From assembly GCA_046485285.1 (NCBI GenBank), contig JAWOHE010000038.1:1-21459 (forward strand): a stretch of DNA of 21,459 nucleotides. The letters are read 5' to 3'. How positions within the stretch are numbered: the stretch's first letter is position 1; every line of letters begins with the position of its first letter. The position numbers and the translations under genes are program-made. Shown piece after piece: positions 623-12,548 of the stretch. Source of the stretch: a bacterium. GTDB taxonomy: Bacteria; Hydrothermota; Tepidihabitantia; Tepidihabitantales; Tepidihabitantaceae. The notes below the pieces were generated by a model, which was given only the letters and a program-made list of their open reading frames with translations, did no database searches and was not told the origin of the DNA.

Positions 623-640
623 TGAGCGGAGGCAACCGTG

Positions 641-3223
641 ATGAAGATACTGCGCACTGCCGTCCTGCTGTCCGTCCTCGCCGGCCCGGCGCTCGCGGCC
701 CGGCCCTGGGCCCCGGCCGAGTTCGAGGCCTGGTATCGCGACTTCACCCCCCGGACCGTCGCCCGGCCCGAGACCCTGCTCTTCGGCCCGCGCCGCCACA
801 ACTACCTCGAACGCATCCGGCTGATGGCCGACTTCGTTGCCCGCCACCAGGTCGCGGACTCGAACTCGCCCGACTACGGCGGCATCATCGAGGCCGAGCA
901 CATGCCCAACGTCATCGAGACCGACAACACCCAGGAGGCAATCTGGGTCTGGTCGCGCTGGCACGAACTCACCGGCCGGGACGACTACGCCGAGAACGTC
1001 CGCCGGGCCTGGCGCTACGTGCTCGCCCACCCGGCCTACTGGGAGCACAACGGCGACCCACTCTCGCTCTGGTACGCGGTCTGGAACTCCGGCCTCGCGC
1101 TGATGGCCGAGGCCCGCTACCGGGCGGCGAGCGGCGACACGAGCTTCCGCGCCTACGCCGATTCCTGCCGCGGCTTCTACCTCGCGAACCCGCTCCCCCC
1201 CACCGGCTATCGCGACAACTTCGTCACGGCCCAGTCCTCGGGAATGGCGTATCCCTTCGCGGTCGGAACCGGCGACGCGGTCCTGCGCGACTCCGCCGTC
1301 GCGCGTGGCGCGCGCGTTCGGGCCTGGATCGAGGAGGACGCCGCCGCCCGGCTCGCCTGGCAGGACTGGGCGATGTCCGGCGGCACCGCGTTCTGGGGCG
1401 TCGCGAACTCGGTCGGCCGGGCGGACACCGCGGCCGGCCGTGCGTGGGTCGCGACCTACGCCGAGTCCCTGCCCGGCTTCTACCCGTCCGGCACCTGGAA
1501 CTGCTCGCACAACATCTGGCTCGCCAACGCCTACCGCGCCGCGGCCGAGCTCTCCGGCACGCGCGAGTGGCGGCTGATGCACCAGTACCTCGTCGACACC
1601 CTGCTCACCCGGGACACCGACCGCGACGGCGGCATCCCGGCGAACTGGACCGACCCGGACAACCGCGACCAGACCTGGGTTTCGACCTATCTCCACTTCA
1701 TGGGCTTCGAAGTCTTCACGACCCCGACCCACGACCGCGACGCGGCCCAGCTCGAGTTCGCCCTGCCCGGGCCGGGCCGGCTGGTCATCGCGCCTGACTC
1801 GGTGCCGGTTCTGGTCCCGGTCGCCAACGTCGGGCTCGAGCCGCTCGCCGGGGCGAGGACCGTCGTCAGCGGTCCGGGCTACTCCGACGAACTCGACTGC
1901 GACCTGCCCTTCCTCGCCTTCGACACCCTCACCGCCCGCCGGTTCCCGGTTCCCGCGCCCGGCGACTACACGCTGACCGCGGCAATCGCCGTGGCCGGCG
2001 ACGCGAACCCGGCCAACGACACGAGCCGGGTCAGCTTCAAGGCTTACGGGCTCCGGACCGTCTCGGGTACGCTGACCGACTCGAGCACCGCGGCCCCGGT
2101 ACCGGCCCGGCTCCATGCCTCGGTCACCGGCGACGCGGCGGTGTGGGACTCCTGCGAGACCGACCCGTCCGGCAACTACTCGCTCCGCATCATCGACACG
2201 ACCGTGACCATCACCGCCCGGCCCCGGGCGCCCTGGTATGACCGGAGCTGGGACTTCGTGATCGCCGGCGACACGACCATCGACCTCGCCACGCCGACCG
2301 CCCACCTCCTGCTCGTCAATAACGACCCGGCCGCCGCCTGGCAGGCGTACTACACCGATGCGCTCGACGCGCTCGGCGTGACCTGGACCGCCTGGTCGCG
2401 GCCGGACTCCGGCGCCCCGCCCTGGCGGCTGCTGCCCGAGCTCCGCTCGCCGACCGTCGTCTACTACTCCGGCGACGCGGCGACCGGCACGGTCCCGGCC
2501 GACGACCGCGACAGCCTCGCCACGCGCGCCGCCGCCGGGCTCAGCCTCCTGCTCTCCGGTCAGGACATCGCCGAGGAGCTCGCCGGCACGCCCTTCCTCG
2601 AGGACCTCTGCGGCGTCCAGTTCGACTCCTCGGGCTGGGCGCGGTTCTTCGTCTTCGGCAACCGGGCCGACTCCGCCGGCCGCCTCATCCACGCCATCGC
2701 CACTGCCGGCGGCGACGGCGCCGGGAACCAGCGCTCGCGGGATATGCTTTCGCCGCTGCGCAACGGCGCGGCGACGCTGATGGTCTACGACACGACGGCC
2801 GGCCCGGGCGCGGCGGTCCGCCGCCTCGACCCGCAGACCGGCAGCCGCATCATCACCCTCGGGTTCGGCTTCGAAGCCGTCAACCAGCCCTCCTCGCGGC
2901 CCGACCTCCTGACCCGGCCGCAGTTCCTCGCCCGCCTGCTCGACTGGCTCGGCCTCGCGACCGGCGTCGCCGAGCCGGTCCCGCCGCGGCCGCTCGCGCG
3001 CCTGCGCGCCGCGCCCAACCCGTTCCGGGAGACGGTCCGCTTCTCCGGCCTGCCGCCCGGCACCAGCCTCGCGGTTCACGACGCAACCGGCCGCCGGGTC
3101 GCGCTCGTTACCGCCCGCGACGGCAGCGCGACCTGGGACGGGCGCGGGCTGCCGGCCGGCGCCTACTTCGCCCGGCCGCTTGGCGGTGGCGGGCCGACCC
3201 TGCTCCTGCTCAAGCTCCGCTGA
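641..3223 (+). CDS. Secreted multidomain protein: alpha-helical (six-hairpin glycosidase-like) N-domain, CARDB/Ig-like domain, carboxypeptidase-regulatory-like domain, T9SS/FlgD-like C-terminal domain
   Basis: Signal peptide MKILRTAVLLSVLAGPALA. Ig-type motifs HDRDAAQLEF...GDANPANDT and VSGTLTDSST...TDPSGNYSL. C-terminal AAPNPFRETV...VHDATGRRV...WDGRGLPAGAYF...LLKLR. ATG 641 preferred over GTG 638 on SD spacing. The catalytic assignment is tentative. Confidence 0.8.
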   Translation: MKILRTAVLLSVLAGPALAARPWAPAEFEAWYRDFTPRTVARPETLLFGPRRHNYLERIRLMADFVARHQVADSNSPDYGGIIEAEHMPNVIETDNTQEAIWVWSRWHELTGRDDYAENVRRAWRYVLAHPAYWEHNGDPLSLWYAVWNSGLALMAEARYRAASGDTSFRAYADSCRGFYLANPLPPTGYRDNFVTAQSSGMAYPFAVGTGDAVLRDSAVARGARVRAWIEEDAAARLAWQDWAMSGGTAFWGVANSVGRADTAAGRAWVATYAESLPGFYPSGTWNCSHNIWLANAYRAAAELSGTREWRLMHQYLVDTLLTRDTDRDGGIPANWTDPDNRDQTWVSTYLHFMGFEVFTTPTHDRDAAQLEFALPGPGRLVIAPDSVPVLVPVANVGLEPLAGARTVVSGPGYSDELDCDLPFLAFDTLTARRFPVPAPGDYTLTAAIAVAGDANPANDTSRVSFKAYGLRTVSGTLTDSSTAAPVPARLHASVTGDAAVWDSCETDPSGNYSLRIIDTTVTITARPRAPWYDRSWDFVIAGDTTIDLATPTAHLLLVNNDPAAAWQAYYTDALDALGVTWTAWSRPDSGAPPWRLLPELRSPTVVYYSGDAATGTVPADDRDSLATRAAAGLSLLLSGQDIAEELAGTPFLEDLCGVQFDSSGWARFFVFGNRADSAGRLIHAIATAGGDGAGNQRSRDMLSPLRNGAATLMVYDTTAGPGAAVRRLDPQTGSRIITLGFGFEAVNQPSSRPDLLTRPQFLARLLDWLGLATGVAEPVPPRPLARLRAAPNPFRETVRFSGLPPGTSLAVHDATGRRVALVTARDGSATWDGRGLPAGAYFARPLGGGGPTLLLLKLR

Positions 3224-3236
3224 CCCGGACGCGAGA

Positions 3237-3262
3237 CGGCGGGCGGGAGGTCCCGCCCGCCG
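3237..3262. terminator. Perfect 11-bp hairpin between convergent genes; possible bidirectional terminator
   Basis: CGGCGGGCGGG-AGGT-CCCGCCCGCCG. No U-tract on either strand. Confidence 0.55.
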
Positions 3263-3280
3263 CAGAACGGACTGCCGGAA

Positions 3281-4639
3281 CTACTGCCCGATAATGACCT
3301 TGACGGTCTCCCGGCTGCCCCGGCCCCTGACGTAGTAGACGCCCGGGGTGAGATGCCGGACGTCGTTCGCGCCCGGCTCGAGATCCATCACCTCGCGGCC
3401 GGACACGTCGAGCAGCGTCGCCGGCCGGGCGCCGGGCAGCGCCGGCAGGTTCAGGACGCCGCGCACCACCGTCGGGAGCCGGTCGGCGGCCACGCCGATG
3501 CCCGGGCTCTCGGCGATGCCCGCGGGTACGACCCAGACCGTCCGGGCCAGCACGTTGTTCTCCCAGACCATCTCGGCCCGGATGCCCCAGGTGCTGCACC
3601 GGGCCTGGAACTGGCCGCGCACGAGCGGCGTCCACGCCGAGAAGTCCAGCGTGTCGAGCCGACCCGGCTGGAGGATGACCGAGGCGGTGTCCCAGTAGCC
3701 GTCCGAGACCTCGAATCGCGCCCGGATGAGGTCCGGCATCGTACCCCGGTTCTCGACCTGCACCGACGGCACGACCGCCCGGCCCGAGTCGGCGCTGTCC
3801 GCCGGCGCGAACATCCGCGTCACCGCGACGTCGTAGACGTTCACCTGGCAGACCCCGTCCCGGTGGTTGTTGGGCTGGATGTCGTCGCCGGCCAGCTCGG
3901 TCGAGCACCGGACGCTGAGCTGGCCCCGTTCCCGCGCGGCCCAGGCCGGGAACTCGACGTAGCGGAGCTGGCCCGGGCCGTGGCCGGTCACCGTCGCGAC
4001 CTCGTCGTAGCTCGAGCCGATGCGCATCCGCACCTGGTAGCTCTCGACGTTGTTGGCGTAGTTATACACCGAGCACGCCGGCACGACCACCGCGGCCGAG
4101 TCGAGGCTCCCGGTCGGGCTGACTATCCTCGTCACCCCGACGTCGTGGTCGATCGGGTTCGGCAGGTACTGCCGGATGAGCGCCTCGATCTGCGCCTCGT
4201 TGTATCCTTCGGCGATGTAGCGGATGATGCCGTCCGGCCCGACGATGTAGTTGAGCGGGACGTAGCCGTTCTGGCGGTAGACCCCCCAGACCGTGCCGTT
4301 GTCGCGTACGAACGGGTAGCTGTACATCCGGGCGTACTGCAGGAGCACGCTCGGCGCCTCGTTCAGGTTCACCGCCAACGGCACGAACCCGTTCGGGCCG
4401 TAGCTCTCGTAGAAGACCTGCAGGCGCGGCAACTCCGCGCGGCAGGTCGGTCAGGTCGAGGTCCAGAAGTTCAGCAGGACGACGCTGCCCCGGAAGTCTG
4501 ACAGCGAGTGGTATTGCCCCGCGGTGTCAGGCAGGCTGAAGTCCGGCGCCTCCTGGCCAACCTGAAGGACCGCCAGCGCGGGCCCGGCCAGGGCCAAGAG
4601 ACCGACCAGCACCGGCAGGACAGGACGGGCTCTGCTCAT
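3281..4639 (-). CDS. Secreted TlpA/AhpC-TSA thioredoxin-fold selenoprotein (UxxC, Sec63) with two CARDB/Ig-like domains and a T9SS-like C-terminal domain, 452 aa
   Basis: Track ORFs 4451..4639 and 3281..4432 are in frame and joined by TGA 4453..4451, giving APDFSL...VVLLNFWTST-U-PTCRAELPRLQ. The TGA sits exactly at the first Cys of the TlpA WCxxC motif. A strong hairpin follows, selB/selD are in the window, and the SD is GAGGTGA. Confidence 0.92.
4415..4448 (-). promoter_or_regulatory. Candidate bacterial SECIS element of the TlpA-like selenoprotein
   Basis: mRNA reads UGA-CC-GACCUGC-C-GCGCGG-[AGUUG]-CCGCGC-CU-GCAGGUC: 7+6 Watson-Crick pairs, with the loop 16 nt after UGA and a GU in the loop. 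Confidence 0.8.
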
Positions 4640-4692
4640 GCATCACCTCTTCTTCTGTTGCGGCCATCGGGATTGCGCTTTGCCGACACCAT

Positions 4693-4811: not shown

Positions 4812-4887
4812 TCGTGCCCTGGTGTTGAATCCGGCGCGAACCGCCGGGGTTCTGCCCCGGGGCCTTCCGGCTTCGTGCCTTGGTGTT
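4812..4887. repeat. 15-bp direct repeat pair flanking a small hairpin in the divergent intergenic region
   Basis: TCGTGCCCTGGTGTT (4812-4826) and TCGTGCCTTGGTGTT (4873-4887) are 14/15 identical. CCGGGG-TTCTG-CCCCGG lies at 4844-4860. Confidence 0.5.
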
Positions 4888-4912
4888 CTATTCGGGACGC
4901 CCGGCACCGGCC

Positions 4913-4940
4913 TTGACTTCCTCCGCCTTTTGGCTAACTT
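4913..4940 (+). promoter_or_regulatory. Putative sigma70 promoter for ktrB, possibly giving a near-leaderless transcript
   Basis: TTGACT (4913-4918), 16-nt spacer, TAACTT (4935-4940). ATG follows 8 nt later with no clear SD. Confidence 0.45.
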
Positions 4941-4948
4941 CAGGGCAA

Positions 4949-6691
4949 ATGTCGTTCTTCCGCCCGGTGCGAGTGATTCGCACCCTGCACGAGACCCCGC
5001 GCTGGGTCGGCCGCCTGCACTGGCTGACGACCGCGCTGGTCGGCGTCGCCCTGCTGCTCGTCATCGCCCGGTCCGGCTACGGTCTTGTCACGACCCCGCT
5101 CCTGCGCGGCGCGGTCGTCGGCTTCAATTTCCTGGTCCTCGCCGCGTTCGCGGCCGACGTCGTGCTCGGGTTCGTTACCGCGCAGTCACGCTGGCAGCAC
5201 TTCAAGCGCCGCTGGTTCGACGTCGCCGTGCTCGTGCCGATCGGGGTCGCCATCGCCGCCGGCGGCACGGGCATCACGTTCGTCGTCCTGCGCCAGTTGG
5301 TCGTCGTCGGCCAGGCCTTCACCCGCTCCCAGCGCTTCGCCGGCTTCCTCGAGGAAATGCGGCTCCAGCCGGTCCGGCTGCTCGCGCTCAGCTTCCTCGC
5401 GATGATCGCGCTCGGAACGCTCTTCCTGACCTTCCCGGCCGCGACCCGCGACGGCTCGGTGACCGGCATTGTCGACGCGCTCTTCACCGCGACGTCGGCG
5501 ACCTGCGTCACCGGTCTCATCGTCCGGAGCACGCCCCACTACTGGTCCGGGTTCGGCCAGCTCGTCATCCTGGTCCTGTTCCAGCTCGGCGGGCTGGGGA
5601 TAATGACCTTTTCGGCCAGCCTGGCGGTCGTGCTCGGCCGCAGGCTCGGGCTCGGCGAGCGCAGGACCGTCTCCGACATCATCGGCGAGTCGCGCAACGT
5701 CGACATCGCCCGAATCCTGCGCTACATCATCTCGATTGTCCTGACCGTTGAGCTGGTCGGGACGCTGCTCCTGTTCCTGCGCTTCCTGCCCGATTTCCCA
5801 CGCTGGACCGACGCGCTCTGGAATGCGGCGTTTCACTCGGTCTCGGGCTTCTGCAACGCCGGTTTTTCGCTCTTCGACGATTCGCTGGCCCGCTACCGGG
5901 TCGACCCGGCGGTCAACCTCGTGATGGTCGCGCTGATTCTCACCGGCGGGCTCGGGTTCGTGGTCGTTCGCGAGCTCTTCAACCGCACCACCCTCCGCCG
6001 CGGCCCGCTCTTTGGCCTGCGCCGGCTCAGCGTCCACGCCCGGCTCGTCCTCGCCACTTCTTTCGTGCTGGTGGTTACCGGCACGGTCGTGTTCTTCTTC
6101 ACCGAGTACGACCGCGCGCTGGCCAGCCTGCCGACCGCCGGCAAGCTGCTGGCCGCGCTGTTCCAGTCGGTGACCGCCCGCACGGCCGGGTTCAACACCG
6201 TGTCGTTCGAGGCGCTCCACCCGGTGACGCTGTTTCTCTGGGCGATGCTGATGTTCGTCGGCGCCTCGCCTGGCGGCACCGGCGGCGGCATCAAGACGAC
6301 GACCTTCGCCATCCTGCTGCTGTCGGTCCGGAACCGCGTCCTCGGCCGCGAGGACATCACCGTCGGACAGCGGGTCGTTCCGCGCGATGTGATCTACCGG
6401 GCGACCTCGATCGTCGCGGTCGCGGGCGGGCTGGTCGCGCTGGCGTTCGCCCTGCTGCTGCTGACCGAGCGACAGCCGTTCGAGAACCTGCTCTTTGAGA
6501 CCTTTTCCGCGTTCGGGACCGTCGGCCTGTCCACCGGGCTCACCGCCGAACTCAGCGCGGCGGGCAAGGTCGTCATCACCGCGCTGATGTACGTCGGCCG
6601 GATCGGACCGCTGACCCTGGCGCTCGCGATGCGCACCCGCCGGGCCCAGGTCGCCATCGGCTTTCCCGAGGCGCGGGTGCTGGTCGGCTAA
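4949..6691 (+). CDS. ktrB: Ktr/Trk potassium uptake membrane subunit (KtrB/TrkH family) with an extra N-terminal membrane domain
   Basis: Four selectivity-filter motifs TCVTGL, FCNAGF, ARTAGF and FGTVGLS, plus GASPGGTGGGIKTTT and MYVGRIGPLT. Start placed at ATG 4949, downstream of the promoter. Confidence 0.92.
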   Translation: MSFFRPVRVIRTLHETPRWVGRLHWLTTALVGVALLLVIARSGYGLVTTPLLRGAVVGFNFLVLAAFAADVVLGFVTAQSRWQHFKRRWFDVAVLVPIGVAIAAGGTGITFVVLRQLVVVGQAFTRSQRFAGFLEEMRLQPVRLLALSFLAMIALGTLFLTFPAATRDGSVTGIVDALFTATSATCVTGLIVRSTPHYWSGFGQLVILVLFQLGGLGIMTFSASLAVVLGRRLGLGERRTVSDIIGESRNVDIARILRYIISIVLTVELVGTLLLFLRFLPDFPRWTDALWNAAFHSVSGFCNAGFSLFDDSLARYRVDPAVNLVMVALILTGGLGFVVVRELFNRTTLRRGPLFGLRRLSVHARLVLATSFVLVVTGTVVFFFTEYDRALASLPTAGKLLAALFQSVTARTAGFNTVSFEALHPVTLFLWAMLMFVGASPGGTGGGIKTTTFAILLLSVRNRVLGREDITVGQRVVPRDVIYRATSIVAVAGGLVALAFALLLLTERQPFENLLFETFSAFGTVGLSTGLTAELSAAGKVVITALMYVGRIGPLTLALAMRTRRAQVAIGFPEARVLVG

Positions 6692-6703
6692 AGGAGGCTT
6701 GCG

Positions 6704-7393
6704 ATGAAGCAGTTTGCGGTTATCGGGCTCGGAACCTTCGGCGGCCGGGTCGCCCGGGCGCTGGTCGGCAAGGGCGCCGAGGTCATCGGCCTCGACTCCG
6801 ACCCGGCCCGGGTCGAGCAGTTCAAGGACGAACTCACCCAGACGCTGGTTGTCGACGCGACCGACGAGGAGGCGATCGCCCATTCGGGCGTGCTCGACGT
6901 CGACGCGGTCGTCGTCGCGATGGGCGAACGGATGGAAGCTGCGATTCTCGTCACCGCCATCCTGCGCCGGCTCGGCGCCGGCCACGTCATCGCCCGGGCC
7001 TCGTCCAGCCTCTACGCCCAGATCTTAGAGGACGTTGGCGCGGACCGGACCGTGCTCATTGAAGAACAGATGGCCGACCAGGTCGCCAAGACCCTGGTCG
7101 CGCCCGACCTGCTCGACCAGATAACCCTGTCAAGCGGCCACAGCCTCGCCGAGATGAAACCGCGCCGCGAGATGGTCGGCCACAAGCTCGGCGAGCTTGA
7201 CCTCCGGCGGCGCTACGGCATCAACGTCGTCGCAATCAAGAAGCGCCTGCCGGTCGTCACCGAGACCGGCGAGAGCGACTACGAAGTCCGGGTCAACGAC
7301 ATTCCCGGCCCGGACGACCGGGTCGAAGAGAGCGACGTCCTCGTTCTCGTCGGTCGCGACGAGGACATCGAAAAGCTCTCGACCGGCAGGTGA
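6704..7393 (+). CDS. ktrA: Ktr/Trk RCK regulatory subunit (KtrA/TrkA family)
   Basis: MKQFAVIGLGTFG Rossmann motif and RCK_C LDLRRRYGINVVAIK. SD AGGAGG at 6692-6697. Confidence 0.93.
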   Translation: MKQFAVIGLGTFGGRVARALVGKGAEVIGLDSDPARVEQFKDELTQTLVVDATDEEAIAHSGVLDVDAVVVAMGERMEAAILVTAILRRLGAGHVIARASSSLYAQILEDVGADRTVLIEEQMADQVAKTLVAPDLLDQITLSSGHSLAEMKPRREMVGHKLGELDLRRRYGINVVAIKKRLPVVTETGESDYEVRVNDIPGPDDRVEESDVLVLVGRDEDIEKLSTGR

Positions 7394-7396
7394 CCC

Positions 7397-8713
7397 GTGC
7401 GGCTGCGCGCCCCCCGGCGACTCGGCGTCCGCTCCGCCTCCCTGCGCGGCCGGATGGTGCTCGCGATGCTCGCTTCGGCCGCGCTGGTGCTCCCGGTTGT
7501 CCTCATCTCGCTGTTCTACATCCGGCGGATGAACGACGCGGTCACCCGCATCGTCCGCGAGGACGTCGAACTCATCCACGTCGGCGACAACATCTCGCTC
7601 GGCTTCGCCCGGGCCCGGCGCGACGAGAGCAACTTCCTGCTCTACCGCGACTCGAGCTACCTTGACCAGAGCCGCGCGGCGGTGGCCCACGTCGTCGAAC
7701 TCGCCGGGCGCGGCCGCGCGCTCGTGCCGGCCGCCGCGGCCGACCTCGACGCCATCGTCCTGCTCGTCGCGCGCTACCAGGCCCTGAGCGACACCCTGCT
7801 CCGGATCCCGGCCCGGGCCGGCGGCATCACCCCCGACCTCGCGCGCCTGCGGCGGGAGCACGCGGCCCTGCTCGGCCGGGCCGCCGCGGCCCCGGAGGGC
7901 GCCCGCCGGGACTCACTCCTCGAGGAAGCCGGCCGCCTCGCCGACGGGCTCACCATCGCCGCCCCGGGCGGCCGCGCGCTCGACGACAGCCTCCGGGCCA
8001 TCCAGCAGGAGATCGTCGCCCGCAGCGAATCGGTCGTCGCCCGCGCCCTCCAGCGGGTCGAGAGCCACCGCCGCGAGGCCCGCCGGATGGCGACCTGGGG
8101 CCAGCGCAACATCATAACCGCCCTGCTCCTGACCGTCATCGCGCTCGTCTGGCTGCTCATCATCCTGCCCCGGCAGGCGGTGTTCCCGATCAAGCGGATG
8201 ATGAACGCCCTCCGCCGCGCCGAGAGCGGCGACCTGGCGGTCCGGGTCAAGCTCGCGACCGGCGACGAGCTCGGCCAGCTCGCCCGCCAGCTCAACCGCA
8301 CGCTCGCCCGGCTCGAGGAGTTCGACAGCGGCAAGGTCGAGCGCATCCTCCAGCTCGAGCGCCGGTTTCGCCTGCTCATCAACGACATCGCCGAGGGCGT
8401 CCTCGTCGTCGACCGGGCGTCCTCGATCCTCGCCGCCAACCCGGCGATGGAGGAACTGCTCGGCCGGCCCGCAAGCGAAGTCCGGGGCCGCCGGGTCCGC
8501 GCGTGCGAGCCGCTCGGATTCATGTTCGAGCCGCTCGAACGGGTGCTCGCCGGTTCGACCGGGCACCAGGAGTGCGACGTCCTGCCCGGCCTGCCCGGCT
8601 CCGCGGTCTGCATCGAGGCGTTGCGCAACCGCGGCGGCGATGTCGTCGGCGCGCTCATCGTCATCAGCAACCCCCGCCGGCCGGAAGTGCCGGACGACAC
8701 GCCAAGCGCCTGA
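7397..8713 (+). CDS. Membrane sensor: TM, extracytoplasmic helical domain, TM, HAMP, PAS, with no output domain
   Basis: Two hydrophobic helices, HAMP PIKRMMNALRRAESGDL...DELGQLARQLN, and PAS LINDIAEGVLVVD...ANPAMEELLG. The protein ends soon after the PAS domain. Confidence 0.85.
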   Translation: MRLRAPRRLGVRSASLRGRMVLAMLASAALVLPVVLISLFYIRRMNDAVTRIVREDVELIHVGDNISLGFARARRDESNFLLYRDSSYLDQSRAAVAHVVELAGRGRALVPAAAADLDAIVLLVARYQALSDTLLRIPARAGGITPDLARLRREHAALLGRAAAAPEGARRDSLLEEAGRLADGLTIAAPGGRALDDSLRAIQQEIVARSESVVARALQRVESHRREARRMATWGQRNIITALLLTVIALVWLLIILPRQAVFPIKRMMNALRRAESGDLAVRVKLATGDELGQLARQLNRTLARLEEFDSGKVERILQLERRFRLLINDIAEGVLVVDRASSILAANPAMEELLGRPASEVRGRRVRACEPLGFMFEPLERVLAGSTGHQECDVLPGLPGSAVCIEALRNRGGDVVGALIVISNPRRPEVPDDTPSA

Positions 8714-8717
8714 GTGG

Positions 8718-9569
8718 TCAGACGTCGCGCCGGTAGACGACCCGGCGCGGGAAGGGTATCTCGACCCCGGCCTTGTCGAATGCGCTCTTCAGCAGGAGCC
8801 GGAGCTCGCGCTCGACCGACCATTGCCGCATCGGTCGGACCGTCACGACGACCCTGATTGTCAACCCGGACTCGCCCAGGTTCAGGAGTCCCTGTACCTC
8901 GGGCGGCGAGAGCGCGACGTCGCCGTGCTCCGCGTACCACCTGTCCGCCGCCTCCCGCGCTACCGCCATCCCCTTCTCCGCGTCCTGCTCGTAGGCGATG
9001 TCTACGGTCACCATCGCCCGCATGAAGTCACGATTCATGTTCCCGAACCGCGTCAGCTCGCCGTTGGGGATCGTATGGAGCGTCCCGTCGTAGCTGCGGA
9101 CCTGGGTCCGCCGGATGCCGATGAACTCGACCGTGCCCCGGACCTCGCCGGCGACGATGTAGTCCCCGACATTCACCGCGTCCTCGAAAAGCAGGAAGAA
9201 CCCGGCCAGGAAGTCCCGCACCAGCGCCTGGGACCCGAACCCGACCGCGAGCCCGACCACCCCGGCCCCGGCCAGTATCGCCGTGAAATCCACTCCCAAG
9301 ACCCGCAGGACCATCACCAGCGCCACGAAGAAGAACACGTAGTAGACGAGGCTTCGCAGGACCGTCATCGCGGTCCTCGCGCTCGGCTTCTGCGCCAGCC
9401 GGGAATGACCGGAAAGCAGCCGCCCGAGCAGGCGCCGGACAACCAGCGACAGGAACCAAGCGCCTGCCACGATCGCCAGTACCTGGCCGGCCTTGATTGC
9501 CAACCCCGCCAGCCGTTCCGCCGACCACAGCCGGGCGCTGAGCTCCCTGATCACCTCACGCCAGAGCAC
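8718..9569 (-). CDS. mscS: Small-conductance mechanosensitive channel family protein
   Basis: LAGAGVVGLAVGFGSQALVRDFLAGFF, VGDYI, GTVEFIGIRRT, IPNG and GVEIPFP motifs. GTG start overlaps the selD TAG. Confidence 0.92.
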   Translation of the reverse strand: MLWREVIRELSARLWSAERLAGLAIKAGQVLAIVAGAWFLSLVVRRLLGRLLSGHSRLAQKPSARTAMTVLRSLVYYVFFFVALVMVLRVLGVDFTAILAGAGVVGLAVGFGSQALVRDFLAGFFLLFEDAVNVGDYIVAGEVRGTVEFIGIRRTQVRSYDGTLHTIPNGELTRFGNMNRDFMRAMVTVDIAYEQDAEKGMAVAREAADRWYAEHGDVALSPPEVQGLLNLGESGLTIRVVVTVRPMRQWSVERELRLLLKSAFDKAGVEIPFPRRVVYRRDV

Positions 9570-10612
9570 TACTCACCTCTCACCTCCAGCCGGCCGGCCC
9601 GGCCCTCGGCAACCTCGCCAACCTCGGCCGCCTCGACCCCGGCCGCAAGGAGCTCCTCGGCCATCTTCCCTGCCTGCCCCGGCGCGATGGCAACCAGCAG
9701 GCCGCCCGACGTCTCCGAGCCCCAGAGCAGGTTGCGGTCCGACTCGGACACCGCGCCGGACCATTCGACGAACCCGCCAAACGCCTGCTCATTCATCGCC
9801 ACCCCGGCGTCGACCAGTCCCCGGGCCGCGAGCGCCCGCGCGCCGGGCAGGAAGGGCAGCCGCTCGAACTGCAGGCGCAGGGCTACTCGACTCGCCGCGG
9901 CCATCTCCTGGGCGTGGCCCAACAGGCCATAGCCGGTGATGTCGGTCGCCCCGTGCGCACCGTACGCCAGCATCGCCCGCGAGGCCGCGCGGTTGAGTGC
10001 AACCATCGAACGGACCGCTGCCCCGGCGAGTTCCGGGTCCGGCTCCTCGTCCGAGAGCGACTGCTGACCGAAGATTCCGGTGCCGAGGGGCTTGGTCAGA
10101 ACCAGCACGTCGCCCGGTCTCGCGCCGTCGTTGCCGACGATCCGGTCGGGCGAGATCGTCCCGGTGACCGCCAGCCCGTACTTGACCTCCTTCTCGTTGA
10201 AGGTATGCCCGCCGACGACGACCGCTCCGGCCTCCTCGACCGCATCCTGCCCGCCGCGCAGTATCTCCACCAGCCACTCCTTCGGAGCCGGCGCCGGGAA
10301 CCCGACAATGTTCAGGACCGTCAGCGGCTCACCGCCCATCGCGTAGACGTCCGACAGCGAGTTCGCGGCCGCGATCCGCCCGTACGTATGCGGGTCCTCG
10401 ACCATCGGGGTCAGCAGGTCCACCGTCTGGACCAGCGCCAGCCCCTCCCGCAGGAGGAACACGCCGGCATCGTCGGCGGTGTTGATGCCGACCAGTAGTC
10501 GCGGGTCATTCGGCGGCTTGAGTTTTTCCAACACCAGCGCCAACTGCGCCTTGCCGAGCTTGGACGCTCAGCCCGCGCAGCTGACGGTGGCCAGGATTCC
10601 ACGTCTTGGCAT
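9569..10612 (-). CDS. selD: Selenide, water dikinase (selenophosphate synthetase), selenocysteine-containing (Sec15), 347 aa
   Basis: ATG 10612 with SD AGGAGG. MPRRGILATVSCAG-U-ASKLGKAQL has TGA 10570..10568 at the catalytic Cys/Sec position. Also DDAGV, QTVD, AANSLSDVYAMGG, GGHT, LTKPLGTG, TDITGYGLLGH and ETSGGLL. Confidence 0.96.
10528..10557 (-). promoter_or_regulatory. Candidate SECIS element of selD
   Basis: UCGGCA-A-GGCGC-[AGUUG]-GCGCU-GG-UGUUGG, loop 22 nt after UGA. Same loop as the TlpA hairpin; the lower stem is wobble-rich. Confidence 0.62.
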
Positions 10613-10616
10613 CCGG

Positions 10617-12548
10617 TTACTCCTCCTTCCTGCGCGCTGGTTTGTCATCCCCGACAGGCACGCGGCGCAGCACGCGCTTGTCGCCGCGGCGCTGGGTCAG
10701 TCCCGTCGAGTCGAAGTGATTGAGCAGCGGTATCGCGTAGCGCCGGGTCGTGCCCAGCGCCTGCCGGACTTCGGTCGCGGCAAGCTCCGCGCTCTTGGCG
10801 AAAAGCGCGGTCAGGACCTCGCGGGCCTCGGAAATCGCGTCGCGATGGAAGACCACGCCCTCACCGACGTCGACCAGCACGCCTGTCTCGAACAGCGCGG
10901 TCCGGACACGCTCGGCAACAGCCTTGCGCGCCCCGGCCATCGTCTCGGCAAGGTCGGGTGGCGAGAACCGTCCGGCCCGGACCGCCGCGGCGGCAGAATC
11001 GAACAGCGCCTGCTCCTCGGCCACCAGCCGGATCTGGTGTCCCGGACGCCGGAGCCGCCCCGCCTCGTCGACGAGCTCGCCCGCCTCGACAAGCTCACCG
11101 GTCACGTGCTCGAACAGTGGCACCGAGAACCCGCGGCCGGCCCGGGCCCGCAACTCGGGTCGCTTCAGGCCGACCCGGAATGGGCTCTCGCGGTGGAACT
11201 CCTCGGTCGCCGCGACGACCGCAGCCCGCGCCCGGGCGAGGTTCTCGGCGTGGACGACATAGTCCCGACCCTCAAACCGGAATCGCACCGCCCGGCCCTC
11301 CTGCTCCAGCGCGGACAGGTGAGCGGCAAAGTCCGCCTCGACCATCACCAACGCCCGGGCGAGCTGGTCCGGCTGTCGCGCCTCCAGCCCGTCCCTGGCC
11401 AGCGCCTGTTCTAGCACCGCCCGGGAATCGCCGGTGCTCTGGGCCTCGAGCCGGGCAATCGTCGCCGCATCGAAGCGCCGCTCCCGCACCGCGCCCGGTT
11501 CGAGCACGACGCCACCGCCGATGGTGTGCTGGGGCGAGTAGGAGCGAAGGACGTAGTGGTCATTCCAGTCACAGACGACCGGCTCCTCAAGCCGAAGCTG
11601 AACCAGCCCCTCCTCGCCCGGCGCGAGCTGCTTCCGGTCCAGCAGCACCGCTCGGCCCATCACCTCCGACGTCCCGATGTGAACCCGGACCCGGGTCATG
11701 TTTCGAAGCGGCCGCTCCGGCCCGGCCAGGAGCGCCAGCGTGCCATTCAGCACGTCGGTCGGCATGTAGTATCCCGGCGTCGCCACGACGAAGCCGCGCG
11801 CGACGTCCTCCCGGGCCAGCCCCTGCAGGTTGAGCGCTGCGCGGTCGCCAACCCGCGCCTCGCCGACCGCCAGATTGTGGCGCTGGATGCCCCGGACCCT
11901 GACCTCGTGTCTGCCGGGCAGGAGTTCGAGTCGGTCGCCGACCCGGCACGACCCGGACAGCACCGTCCCGGCGACCACCGTGCCGAAACCCTTGATGATG
12001 AAGCTCCGGTCGACCGGCATCCGAAACACGCCGCGGTCCTTCCGGCCGCGCACCTGCGCCACCAGCGCCTCGAGCGCCGCCCGTACCTCCTCGACGCCCT
12101 GCCCGGTCGCCGCCGAGGCGGCGATGACCGGCGCGCCTTCGAGGAACGAACCCCTGACGAGCTCGGCGACGTCATCGCGCACGAGCTCGAGCCAGTCGGC
12201 GTCGGCCAGATCGGCCTTGTTGATGACGACCATCCCGCGCTCGATGCCCATAAGCCGGCAGATGTCGAAGTGCTCGCGAGTCTGGGGCATCACCCCGTCG
12301 TCGGCCGCGACGACCAGCACGACCACGTCGATCGTGCTCGCCCCGGCCAGCATGTGCCGGACGAACTTCTCGTGCCCGGGGACGTCGATTATTGTCACCG
12401 AGTCGGAGAGGAACGCGAAGCCGAGGTCGGTCGTCATCCCGCGCTCCTTCTCTTCCTTGAGCCGATCCGGGTCGGTCCCGGTCAGCGCCCTGACCAGCGC
12501 GCTCTTGCCGTGGTCAATGTGCCCGGCCGTGCCGACGACGACGTGCAT
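10617..12548 (-). CDS. selB: Selenocysteine-specific translation elongation factor
   Basis: [40 protein letters not shown] and the C-terminal winged helix [14 protein letters not shown]. Confidence 0.97.

Follow-up and report, generated by a model that had tools for sequence, protein, structure and literature searches.

Evidence for an apparently exported TlpA-like selenoprotein with CARDB-like domains and a sorting-type tail in candidate division WOR-3

Does the TGA that separates two neighbouring open reading frames (ORFs) in contig JAWOHE010000038.1 end a gene, or does it encode selenocysteine (Sec, U) in the middle of one? The contig (21,459 nt, assembly GCA_046485285.1), hereafter the window, is the whole stretch of DNA that was analysed. 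Its minus-strand ORFs 4451..4639 (62 aa, ATG start) and 3281..4432 (383 aa, TTG start) share one frame, and the TGA at 4451-4453 is the stop of the 62-aa ORF. An earlier note had joined the two ORFs into one gene for a secreted selenoprotein, with the TGA at the first position of a UxxC motif. The joined translation agreed with this proposal: reading TGA as U yielded a 452-residue protein with a single recoded codon, U63, in LLNFWTST-U-PTC-RAELPRL. It also contained the strings that the note had quoted, namely ALA/VLQ at residues 21-26, HDVGVTRIVSP at 165, YDVAVTRMFAP at 269 and the tail LLDVSGREV...PGVYYVR...KVII. We consider it very probable that the gene encodes a genuine Sec-containing, extracytoplasmic TlpA-like oxidoreductase. 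The features needed for the first part of the argument are as follows.

3281..4639, minus strand: whole coding sequence, 452 codons plus a TAG stop (3281-3283), with TGA63 read as Sec
4571..4639, minus strand: predicted signal peptide, residues 1-23 (MSRAR, a hydrophobic core and ALA before the predicted cut; assigned by eye)
4154..4570, minus strand: ResA/TlpA-type thioredoxin-fold domain, residues 24-162, from Pfam, NCBIfam, Foldseek and phmmer
4442..4453, minus strand: active-site motif U63-P-T-C66 (Sec codon 4451-4453), which aligns with the CxxC of ResA

The joined protein was searched in 272 genomes of the phylum. There were 28 full-length matches in 27 of these genomes, all within the window's own family (f1), and exactly one internal TGA was present in 26 of the matches and none in the other two. 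Codons were then compared at 27 loci from 27 genomes, a second copy in G212 being left out because it had no locus. If all close homologues carried TGC or TGT, the Sec reading would lose its ground; at the first position of [U/C]xxC, however, TGA was found in 25 of the 27 loci and TGC in two (G184 and G223). This column is thus a conserved Sec/Cys position, where an in-frame UGA aligns with Cys and is conserved as UGA in orthologues, as expected of a selenoprotein gene. Because orthologue identity to the window protein (43-73%) falls as low as 43%, the codon has been kept over considerable divergence, and because it recurs in 25 separate assemblies, sequencing error cannot account for it. Upstream of the TGA, residues G28, A31, P32, F34, P37, D38, G51, V54 and W59 were invariant in the 26 aligned orthologues. 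We regard it as very improbable that the TGA is an error or marks a broken pseudogene.

A competing explanation takes the TGA as a true stop, leaving either a pseudogene or a 62-aa peptide followed by a 383-aa protein started at the internal TTG. The ordinary use of the codon fits this explanation. TGA is the commonest stop in this genome of 69% GC content, where 520 of the 901 open frames with 500 codons or more end in it, and within the window it terminates rpoN, lptB, trkA, a histidine kinase gene and an 861-aa ORF (638-3223). The codon is thus not reassigned genome-wide, which also counts among five independent lines that favour Sec at this one site. Public gene calls also treat it as a stop. 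Among 21 long-form public relatives that were fetched, 16 start 3-25 residues past the motif, and the other five are full-length Cys forms. The same truncation can be read the other way, as the earlier note had anticipated when it expected standard pipelines to split the gene or call it a pseudogene. A true stop would break the thioredoxin fold at its active site, and the 62 codons upstream, including the signal peptide, are conserved in all 26 aligned orthologues. Together with the TGA/Cys column and the RNA element described next, the comparative sequence data already contradict this explanation, and we give it almost no weight.

Directly after the TGA of the proposed selenoprotein gene lies a candidate selenocysteine insertion sequence (SECIS).

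4415..4448, minus strand: SECIS-like hairpin, nt 6-39 counted from the U of the UGA
4424-4440, minus strand: conserved apical stem-loop GCGCGG-AGUUG-CCGCGC, from fold and covariation

The 64 nt from the UGA folded at -28.2 kcal/mol (z = -2.96), and none of 200 shuffles was equally stable. The 6-bp apical hairpin begins 13 nt past the UGA. Its sequence, GCGCGG-AGUUR-CCGCGC (nt 14-30), was found in all Sec-bearing orthologues, and the six apical base pairs were intact throughout (25 sequences, 24 distinct). Compensatory double changes occurred at two of these pairs: G14-C30 became U-A in two loci of one genus, and C17-G27 became A-U in one locus. The covariation score of the 13-pair helix was 0.147 versus a shuffled mean of 0.091, a value reached by 0 of 500 shuffles, and the slid controls gave 0.029-0.076. 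The lower stem was partly conserved, each pair being formed in 42-96% of cases. In a 2026 review, the bacterial SECIS (bSECIS) model comprises four constraints, including a distance of 16-37 nt from UGA to loop and a minimum free energy below -7.5 kcal/mol (PMC13188914). The hairpin agreed with all four as given there: the 5-nt loop AGUUG has G and U at positions 2-3, the upper stem has 6 bp, the spacing is 16 nt, which is the lower limit of the range, and the minimum free energy is the -28.2 kcal/mol noted above.

Synonymous sites behaved in keeping with such an element. Synonymous-codon entropy was computed on 24 aligned Sec forms, and codons 67-72 (R-A-E-L-P-R), which form the hairpin, had the lowest value of all 173 six-position runs, 0.246; the mean for the gene, taken across 178 conserved degenerate positions, was 1.07. 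Arg67 was CGC in 22 of 22, Ala68 was GCG in 23 of 23 and Glu69 was GAG in 24 of 24. This low variation reflects selection on the RNA, beyond that on the protein alone. The stems of the two Cys forms deviated in the expected direction (n = 2), with one C·A mismatch and a changed loop in G184 and one U·G wobble in G223. The conserved hairpin, its compensatory changes and its agreement with the bSECIS rules support a SECIS for TGA63.

The earlier note had placed selB and selD, which selenoproteins of this kind need, nearby. Both were located 4.9-7.9 kb from the gene start.

10617..12548, minus strand: selB, Sec-specific elongation factor (TIGR00475, 358 bits vs cut-off 242)
9569..10612, minus strand: selD (TIGR00476, 320 bits), with an in-frame TGA at 10568-10570 (SCAG-U-ASK)

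Since selB ends only 4 nt upstream of the selD start, the two genes probably form one operon. selD is itself a selenoprotein gene, and the ORF listing shows only its post-TGA part (9569-10543). The tRNA-Sec gene was found on another contig of the genome (G000:C49:6554-6644; 73.2 bits vs cut-off 47), where ARAGORN also called a tRNA-SeC with anticodon tca; in the window, ARAGORN found no tRNA, and an Rfam scan at gathering thresholds gave 0 matches. SelA is encoded on contig C3 (537.7 bits vs cut-off 267.9). A genome without selA and selC, and with a selD that could not be recoded either, would speak against Sec at this site; SelA, tRNA-Sec and a Sec-containing SelD were all present, and with SelB the genome encodes the complete set expected for selenoprotein synthesis. 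Family-wide, SelB scored above cut-off in 41 of 44 genomes.

What kind of protein does the recoded gene specify? Residues 1-23 look like a signal peptide for secretion, predicted by eye. The same layout was seen in all 26 aligned orthologues; the predicted local distance difference test (pLDDT) values were low at residues 1-21, and the match to the soluble domain of ResA begins at residue 28. The domain that follows had been described in the earlier note as TlpA-like, and several methods bore this out. Pfam matched the window protein to AhpC-TSA (1.4e-20) and Redoxin (2.9e-16). Because the NCBIfam scores were all below their equivalog cut-offs (ResA 72/170, TlpA 46.5/230 and DsbE 30.7/123 bits), the domain can be assigned, from sequence, to the ResA/TlpA superfamily and not to any named enzyme as an equivalog. 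An AlphaFold2 model built from the 26 orthologues had a mean pLDDT of 86.3, and its best Foldseek matches were to Bacillus subtilis ResA, the top one being 2h1b_C, with a target-normalised TM-score of 0.89 and a root mean square deviation (rmsd) of 1.7 Å over 138 columns. phmmer against PDB sequences also retrieved ResA (1.4e-15). In the model, the thioredoxin fold carries the family's additional hairpin at the N-terminus and its insert in the centre, and helix 1 bears a dyad of the CxxC type.

In the HMMER alignment to a ResA chain, U63 and C66 fell on the CxxC, the invariant Glu69 fell on the ResA Glu three residues after the second Cys, Pro71 fell on the following Pro, and V-P128-L-N-Y fell on the cis-Pro loop. 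The PDB titles 'ResA C74A', 'C77A' and 'E80Q' name the residues that were studied in ResA. Glu80 of ResA tunes the pKa values of the active site.

Could the domain be a Sec peroxidase of the peroxiredoxin kind, and not a disulfide oxidoreductase? Its best Pfam match is AhpC-TSA, there were weak NCBIfam matches to thiol peroxidases (for example PRK09437, 22.9 bits), and Sec-containing peroxiredoxins are a known family, listed in Table 1 of the review (PMC13188914). The active site argues otherwise. As thioredoxin-type oxidoreductases do, the domain has its dyad, here UxxC, where helix 1 begins, and the PxxxTxxC signature is absent: Pro is missing at -7, and at -3 the orthologues have T, Q, V, E, A, H or N. 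In structure and in NCBIfam, the closest matches were likewise ResA, TlpA and DsbE. We regard a peroxidase as improbable.

For the TlpA-like oxidoreductase, these data suggest the following course of events. The hairpin would recruit SelB with Sec-tRNA(Sec), so that Sec is inserted at UGA63; the cis element and the complete machinery both point this way. The signal peptide would route the precursor through the general secretory (Sec) translocon and would then be cleaved. By analogy with the family, Sec63 would attack a substrate disulfide, and Cys66 would resolve the mixed selenenylsulfide, which leaves a selenenylsulfide within the molecule. Glu69 and the cis-Pro128 loop, which align with Glu80 and the cis-Pro of ResA, may contribute to the chemistry as they do in that family. 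An external reductant would recycle the enzyme, and while the protein is in the periplasm a DsbD/CcdA-type protein could do so. Our best guess for the substrate is the disulfides of extracytoplasmic or extracellular proteins.

The protein shares much with described systems and also departs from each of them. Like ResA, TlpA and CcmG (DsbE), it has the common fold, the dyad at the start of helix 1, the cis-Pro loop and an N-terminal export signal, and as in ResA-type proteins a Glu and a Pro stand six and eight residues after the first active-site residue. It differs from these proteins in having Sec in place of the first Cys and about 290 extra residues, comprising a pair of CARDB-like domains and a sorting-type tail; in addition, no cytochrome c maturation or cytochrome oxidase genes are linked to it in the window. 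The ResA-like WAxxUGC selenoprotein NF041054 has a ResA-like fold and an active-site Sec in common with it and matched all 26 orthologues weakly. However, the window protein scored 33.7 bits versus a cut-off of 300, and its motif is W-x-x-x-U-x-x-C, not WAxxUGC, so it is not a member. The surface-exposed thioredoxin lipoproteins Etrx1 and Etrx2 of Streptococcus pneumoniae also carry a TlpA-like domain outside the cytoplasmic membrane, and one of their structures, 4hqz, was among the fold and sequence matches; unlike the window protein, they are Cys enzymes, lipid-anchored and from a Gram-positive organism. They are fed by CcdA and serve MsrAB2.

Among its predicted selenoproteins, the 2026 review lists three families with UxxC and a fold of this class (PMC13188914). 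They have the fold class, the UxxC motif and the Pfam families in common with the window protein; the passages compared name no fused CARDB domains and no sorting tail, and the words T9SS (type IX secretion system) and 'sorting' are absent from the review. A full-text literature search found no paper pairing a selenoprotein with WOR-3 or WOR-3 with T9SS. Among the partly accessible texts that the searches returned, none described a selenoprotein as T9SS cargo, and a search on Sec-containing TlpA proteins from metagenome-assembled genomes gave nothing on this protein family. The earlier note had called the architecture undescribed. For the architecture as a whole this agrees with the literature searched, as far as those texts were accessible; the redox module taken alone belongs to a selenoprotein type that is already listed.

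The same redox domain occurs in a second form. A short paralogue in the window genome (G000:C7:24760-25536, plus strand; L040:1261-2037) encodes 258 residues with the same TlpA-like domain and U59 in NFWQST-U-PVC-RAELPRL. It has a signal peptide and a FlgD_ig/T9SS-type tail and lacks the CARDB domains. Within the literature searched, no description of this short form was found either. Searching the phylum with the TlpA domain alone gave, besides the 28 long forms, 55 further matches at E up to 1.3e-23, mostly in family f1 with a few in more distant families; 49 had one internal TGA and six had none, the position of the TGA being confirmed for the copy in the window genome. In a distant family of the phylum (f39), several TlpA-like genes with one in-frame TGA are clustered on two contigs (G257:C6 and G258:C3), one of them in a 697-aa open frame, which suggests more fused or tandem Sec-TlpA forms outside f1.

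Public entries hide the redox domain of both forms. Among the 27 closest short-form public relatives, 25 are N-truncated proteins of 165-209 aa, and the two full-length ones have Cys. Because the relatives are N-truncated at the Sec codon, the redox domain is invisible in these entries, which carry the organism label candidate division WOR-3 and, if named at all, are called 'hypothetical protein', 'FlgD immunoglobulin-like domain containing protein' or 'T9SS type A sorting domain-containing protein'. None of the curated NCBIfam selenoprotein models came near its cut-off on the window protein, so annotation based on NCBIfam would keep missing these proteins. The chemistry is that of known selenoproteins, and the multidomain, apparently exported form in which it occurs here is undescribed and consistently mis-annotated. 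The locus contributes a selenoprotein architecture with good support from an uncultured phylum, together with an annotation correction for the whole lineage.

Natural Sec/Cys pairs within one orthologue group are ready material for comparison. Five distinct Cys long forms were available (P0005 and P0007-P0010; L013 is the G184 locus and L016 the G223 locus), three with CGHC, one with CQHC and one with CGAC. A His before the second Cys was thus present in four of the five Cys forms versus none of the 25 Sec forms. This is the arrangement of DsbA and PDI, in which it lowers the pKa of the attacking thiol. Sec provides a deprotonated nucleophile unaided, and the His in the Cys forms would be consistent with a need for one. 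We treat this as a lead only: the Cys long forms are closely related to one another, and as a general rule for Cys forms a His at +2 fails in the short paralogue group, where P0088 and P0094 have CPYC and CPTC. Loss of the Sec machinery was also considered as the cause of the Cys long forms and was rejected, as G184 and G223 both have SelB above cut-off. In a maximum-likelihood tree of 27 long forms rooted on the short paralogue, the two Cys forms branched off one after the other at the base of the clade that contains the window protein. Such a topology requires two changes between Sec and Cys (Sec lost twice, or lost once and regained once); because the outgroup branch is long (1.46), we draw no direction for them. 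One f1 genome, G222 (92% complete), has a Cys short form and no SelB above cut-off, an EF-Tu-like match of 178 bits being the only one. It is the only f1 genome with this combination and may have lost the Sec trait.

The redox domain of the window protein is followed by two domains that the earlier note had compared with CARDB.

3836..4147, minus strand: CARDB-like beta-sandwich domain 1, residues 165-268 (AlphaFold2 models and VIA-align; conserved C189 and C245)
3524..3835, minus strand: CARDB-like beta-sandwich domain 2, residues 269-372 (VIA-align to 3idu_A; profile vs PDB)

The comparison held. Modelled alone with AlphaFold2, the pair had a pLDDT of 93.3 and both domains were beta-sandwiches. 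A VIA-align search over 48,161 representative chains placed 3idu_A, the Pyrococcus CARDB protein PF1109, at the top for domain 2 (Z 13.3, rmsd 2.0, 103 residues, 23% identity), about 2 Z units over generic Ig-like folds; domain 1 matched generic Ig-like modules at Z 11.4-11.5. A profile of the spacer region retrieved 3idu (7.2e-5) and 2kl6 (8.7e-5) from the PDB sequences. Pfam CARDB (PF07705) gave no match to the window protein at E up to 0.1 and matched five of the 26 orthologues, the best at 2.2e-4. 'CARDB-like' is therefore a fair label, with membership of the family not established. Foldseek on the two-domain model returned only long, high-rmsd matches to tandem Ig domains (for example C-terminal domains of transglutaminases) and was less informative than VIA-align. 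The conserved cysteines are C189 and C245 in domain 1 and C348 in domain 2. With moderate confidence, the pair would act as a rigid spacer. Because the CARDB-like module recurs in other large ORFs of the genome, at least two of which (on C70 and C48) have T9SS tails above cut-off, the head-CARDB-tail order looks like a common local design for exported proteins.

Where, then, does the Sec head work? The answer depends on the end of the protein, which follows a low-confidence linker (residues 373-389 in the AlphaFold2 model).

3284..3472, minus strand: C-terminal beta-rich tail, residues 390-452, with weak likeness to the T9SS type A sorting domain

The earlier note had seen in this tail a T9SS-like sorting signal and had suggested possible surface display. 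The window protein's own tail is a weak match, and those of the orthologues score better. Seven orthologues have the short tail, and PF18962 was the sole Pfam family matched, in five of them. In the other 19 of the 26 the tail is about 22 residues longer, lies in the same position and matches FlgD_ig (best 2.7e-12). TIGR04183 matched 18 of the 26 at E up to 0.05 (best 1.3e-6), and hhalign related short to long tails with a probability of 72.8% (E 3.2e-5, 46 columns), which indicates that they are homologous. Such tails are abundant in the host: TIGR04183 gave 77 matches at E up to 1e-3, most of them above cut-off, versus 0 in 14 control genomes. The genome also has two ORFs, each roughly 1,300 aa long, that resemble PorU (G000:C96:13894-18018 and G000:C28:1409-4624), and a PorV-like ORF directly follows the one on C96. 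Like T9SS cargo, the protein has the order signal peptide, head, Ig-like domains and C-terminal domain, and its orthologues carry tails of the TIGR04183, PF18962 and FlgD_ig types; it differs in its sub-threshold tail and in a host in which the core T9SS machinery is not demonstrated. A C-terminal-domain sorting pathway in this host is plausible on sequence grounds. The tail may be a sorting signal of the kind of the T9SS C-terminal domain, which would bring the redox head as far as the outer membrane or past it; no other step of the mechanism is as uncertain, and we judge tail-directed export beyond the periplasm to be evenly balanced.

Taken to its full extent, the proposal is that a C-terminal domain of the T9SS type sorts this selenoprotein family, which would be the first such case. 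A CARDB stalk would hold the Sec head at the outer membrane or outside it, and together with the short paralogue the protein would form a lineage-wide extracellular system for selenium-based thiol exchange in WOR-3, one entirely overlooked by present annotation. We assign this reading a probability of roughly 0.4. Several observations weigh against it or against the main reading. The tail of the window protein scored below the curated cut-offs (TIGR04183, 14.7 bits vs 23; PF18962, 13.4 vs 27), so surface display is the weakest part of the proposal, one that the earlier note had itself worded as 'T9SS-like' and 'possibly'. The PorU-like ORFs reached 298 and 62 bits in one case and 258 and 96 in the other, versus a cut-off of 420, the PorV-like ORF reached 77.6 versus 250, and the GldK model gave partial matches alone, at 85-98 bits versus 350. 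SprA (TIGR04189, PF14349) and GldM (TIGR03517) gave no match; because the controls were silent too and the genome is 88% complete, these searches are uninformative and neither show nor exclude a T9SS. A surface location would leave the enzyme without a known reductant, and the one DsbD/CcdA-type gene (DsbD_TM at G000:C68:8119-8745, 77.1 bits, above cut-off) would serve a periplasmic enzyme. Sec itself is not indispensable for the function, since G184 and G223 use Cys despite having SelB. No functional clue emerged from the neighbouring trkH, trkA and histidine kinase genes, and a sequencing-run search listed no RNA run and a single DNA run, which contained 0.06 of the sampled words. The genome that carries the 77 T9SS-type tails, with neither SprA nor GldM detected, is 2.34 Mb in size.

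Several of these observations would fit a selenoprotein that stays in the periplasm. Its tail would be a decayed or non-sorting Ig-like domain, and it would work like ResA, TlpA or CcmG and be reduced by DsbD/CcdA. The sub-threshold tail, the missing SprA and GldM and the DsbD_TM gene all suit such a protein, and to our knowledge the close structural relatives solved so far are all extracytoplasmic reductases that depend on a DsbD/CcdA-type protein for their own reduction. However, the clear FlgD_ig/T9SS-type tails in 19 of the 26 orthologues, the homology of the short tail to them, the 77 tails and the PorU-like/PorV-like gene pair in the genome, and the recurrence of the head-CARDB-tail layout in ORFs with above-cut-off tails are not what a tail without a sorting role would lead one to expect. 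We find a purely periplasmic enzyme a serious possibility, though a somewhat doubtful one.

A working sorting tail would raise the concrete question of how a cell employs selenium chemistry on its outside, and for what reason. An extracellular Sec head would, if this is true, act where no NAD(P)H-linked reductant is available. Confirmed extracellular sorting of a selenoenzyme would raise the interest of the finding.

The remaining features lie around the gene.

4642..4649, minus strand: Shine-Dalgarno-like GAGGUGAU, ending 2 nt before the ATG, read from the sequence

The trkH, trkA and PAS-domain histidine kinase genes (4880-8713, plus strand) are divergent from the target gene. On its other side, the 861-aa ORF at 638-3223 (plus strand) is convergent with it and had no Pfam or NCBIfam match; the stretch that separates these convergent genes contains a GC-rich inverted repeat (about 3240-3266). 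The end of the 861-aa ORF, ...WDGRGLPAGAYFARP..., resembles the long FlgD_ig/T9SS-type tails.

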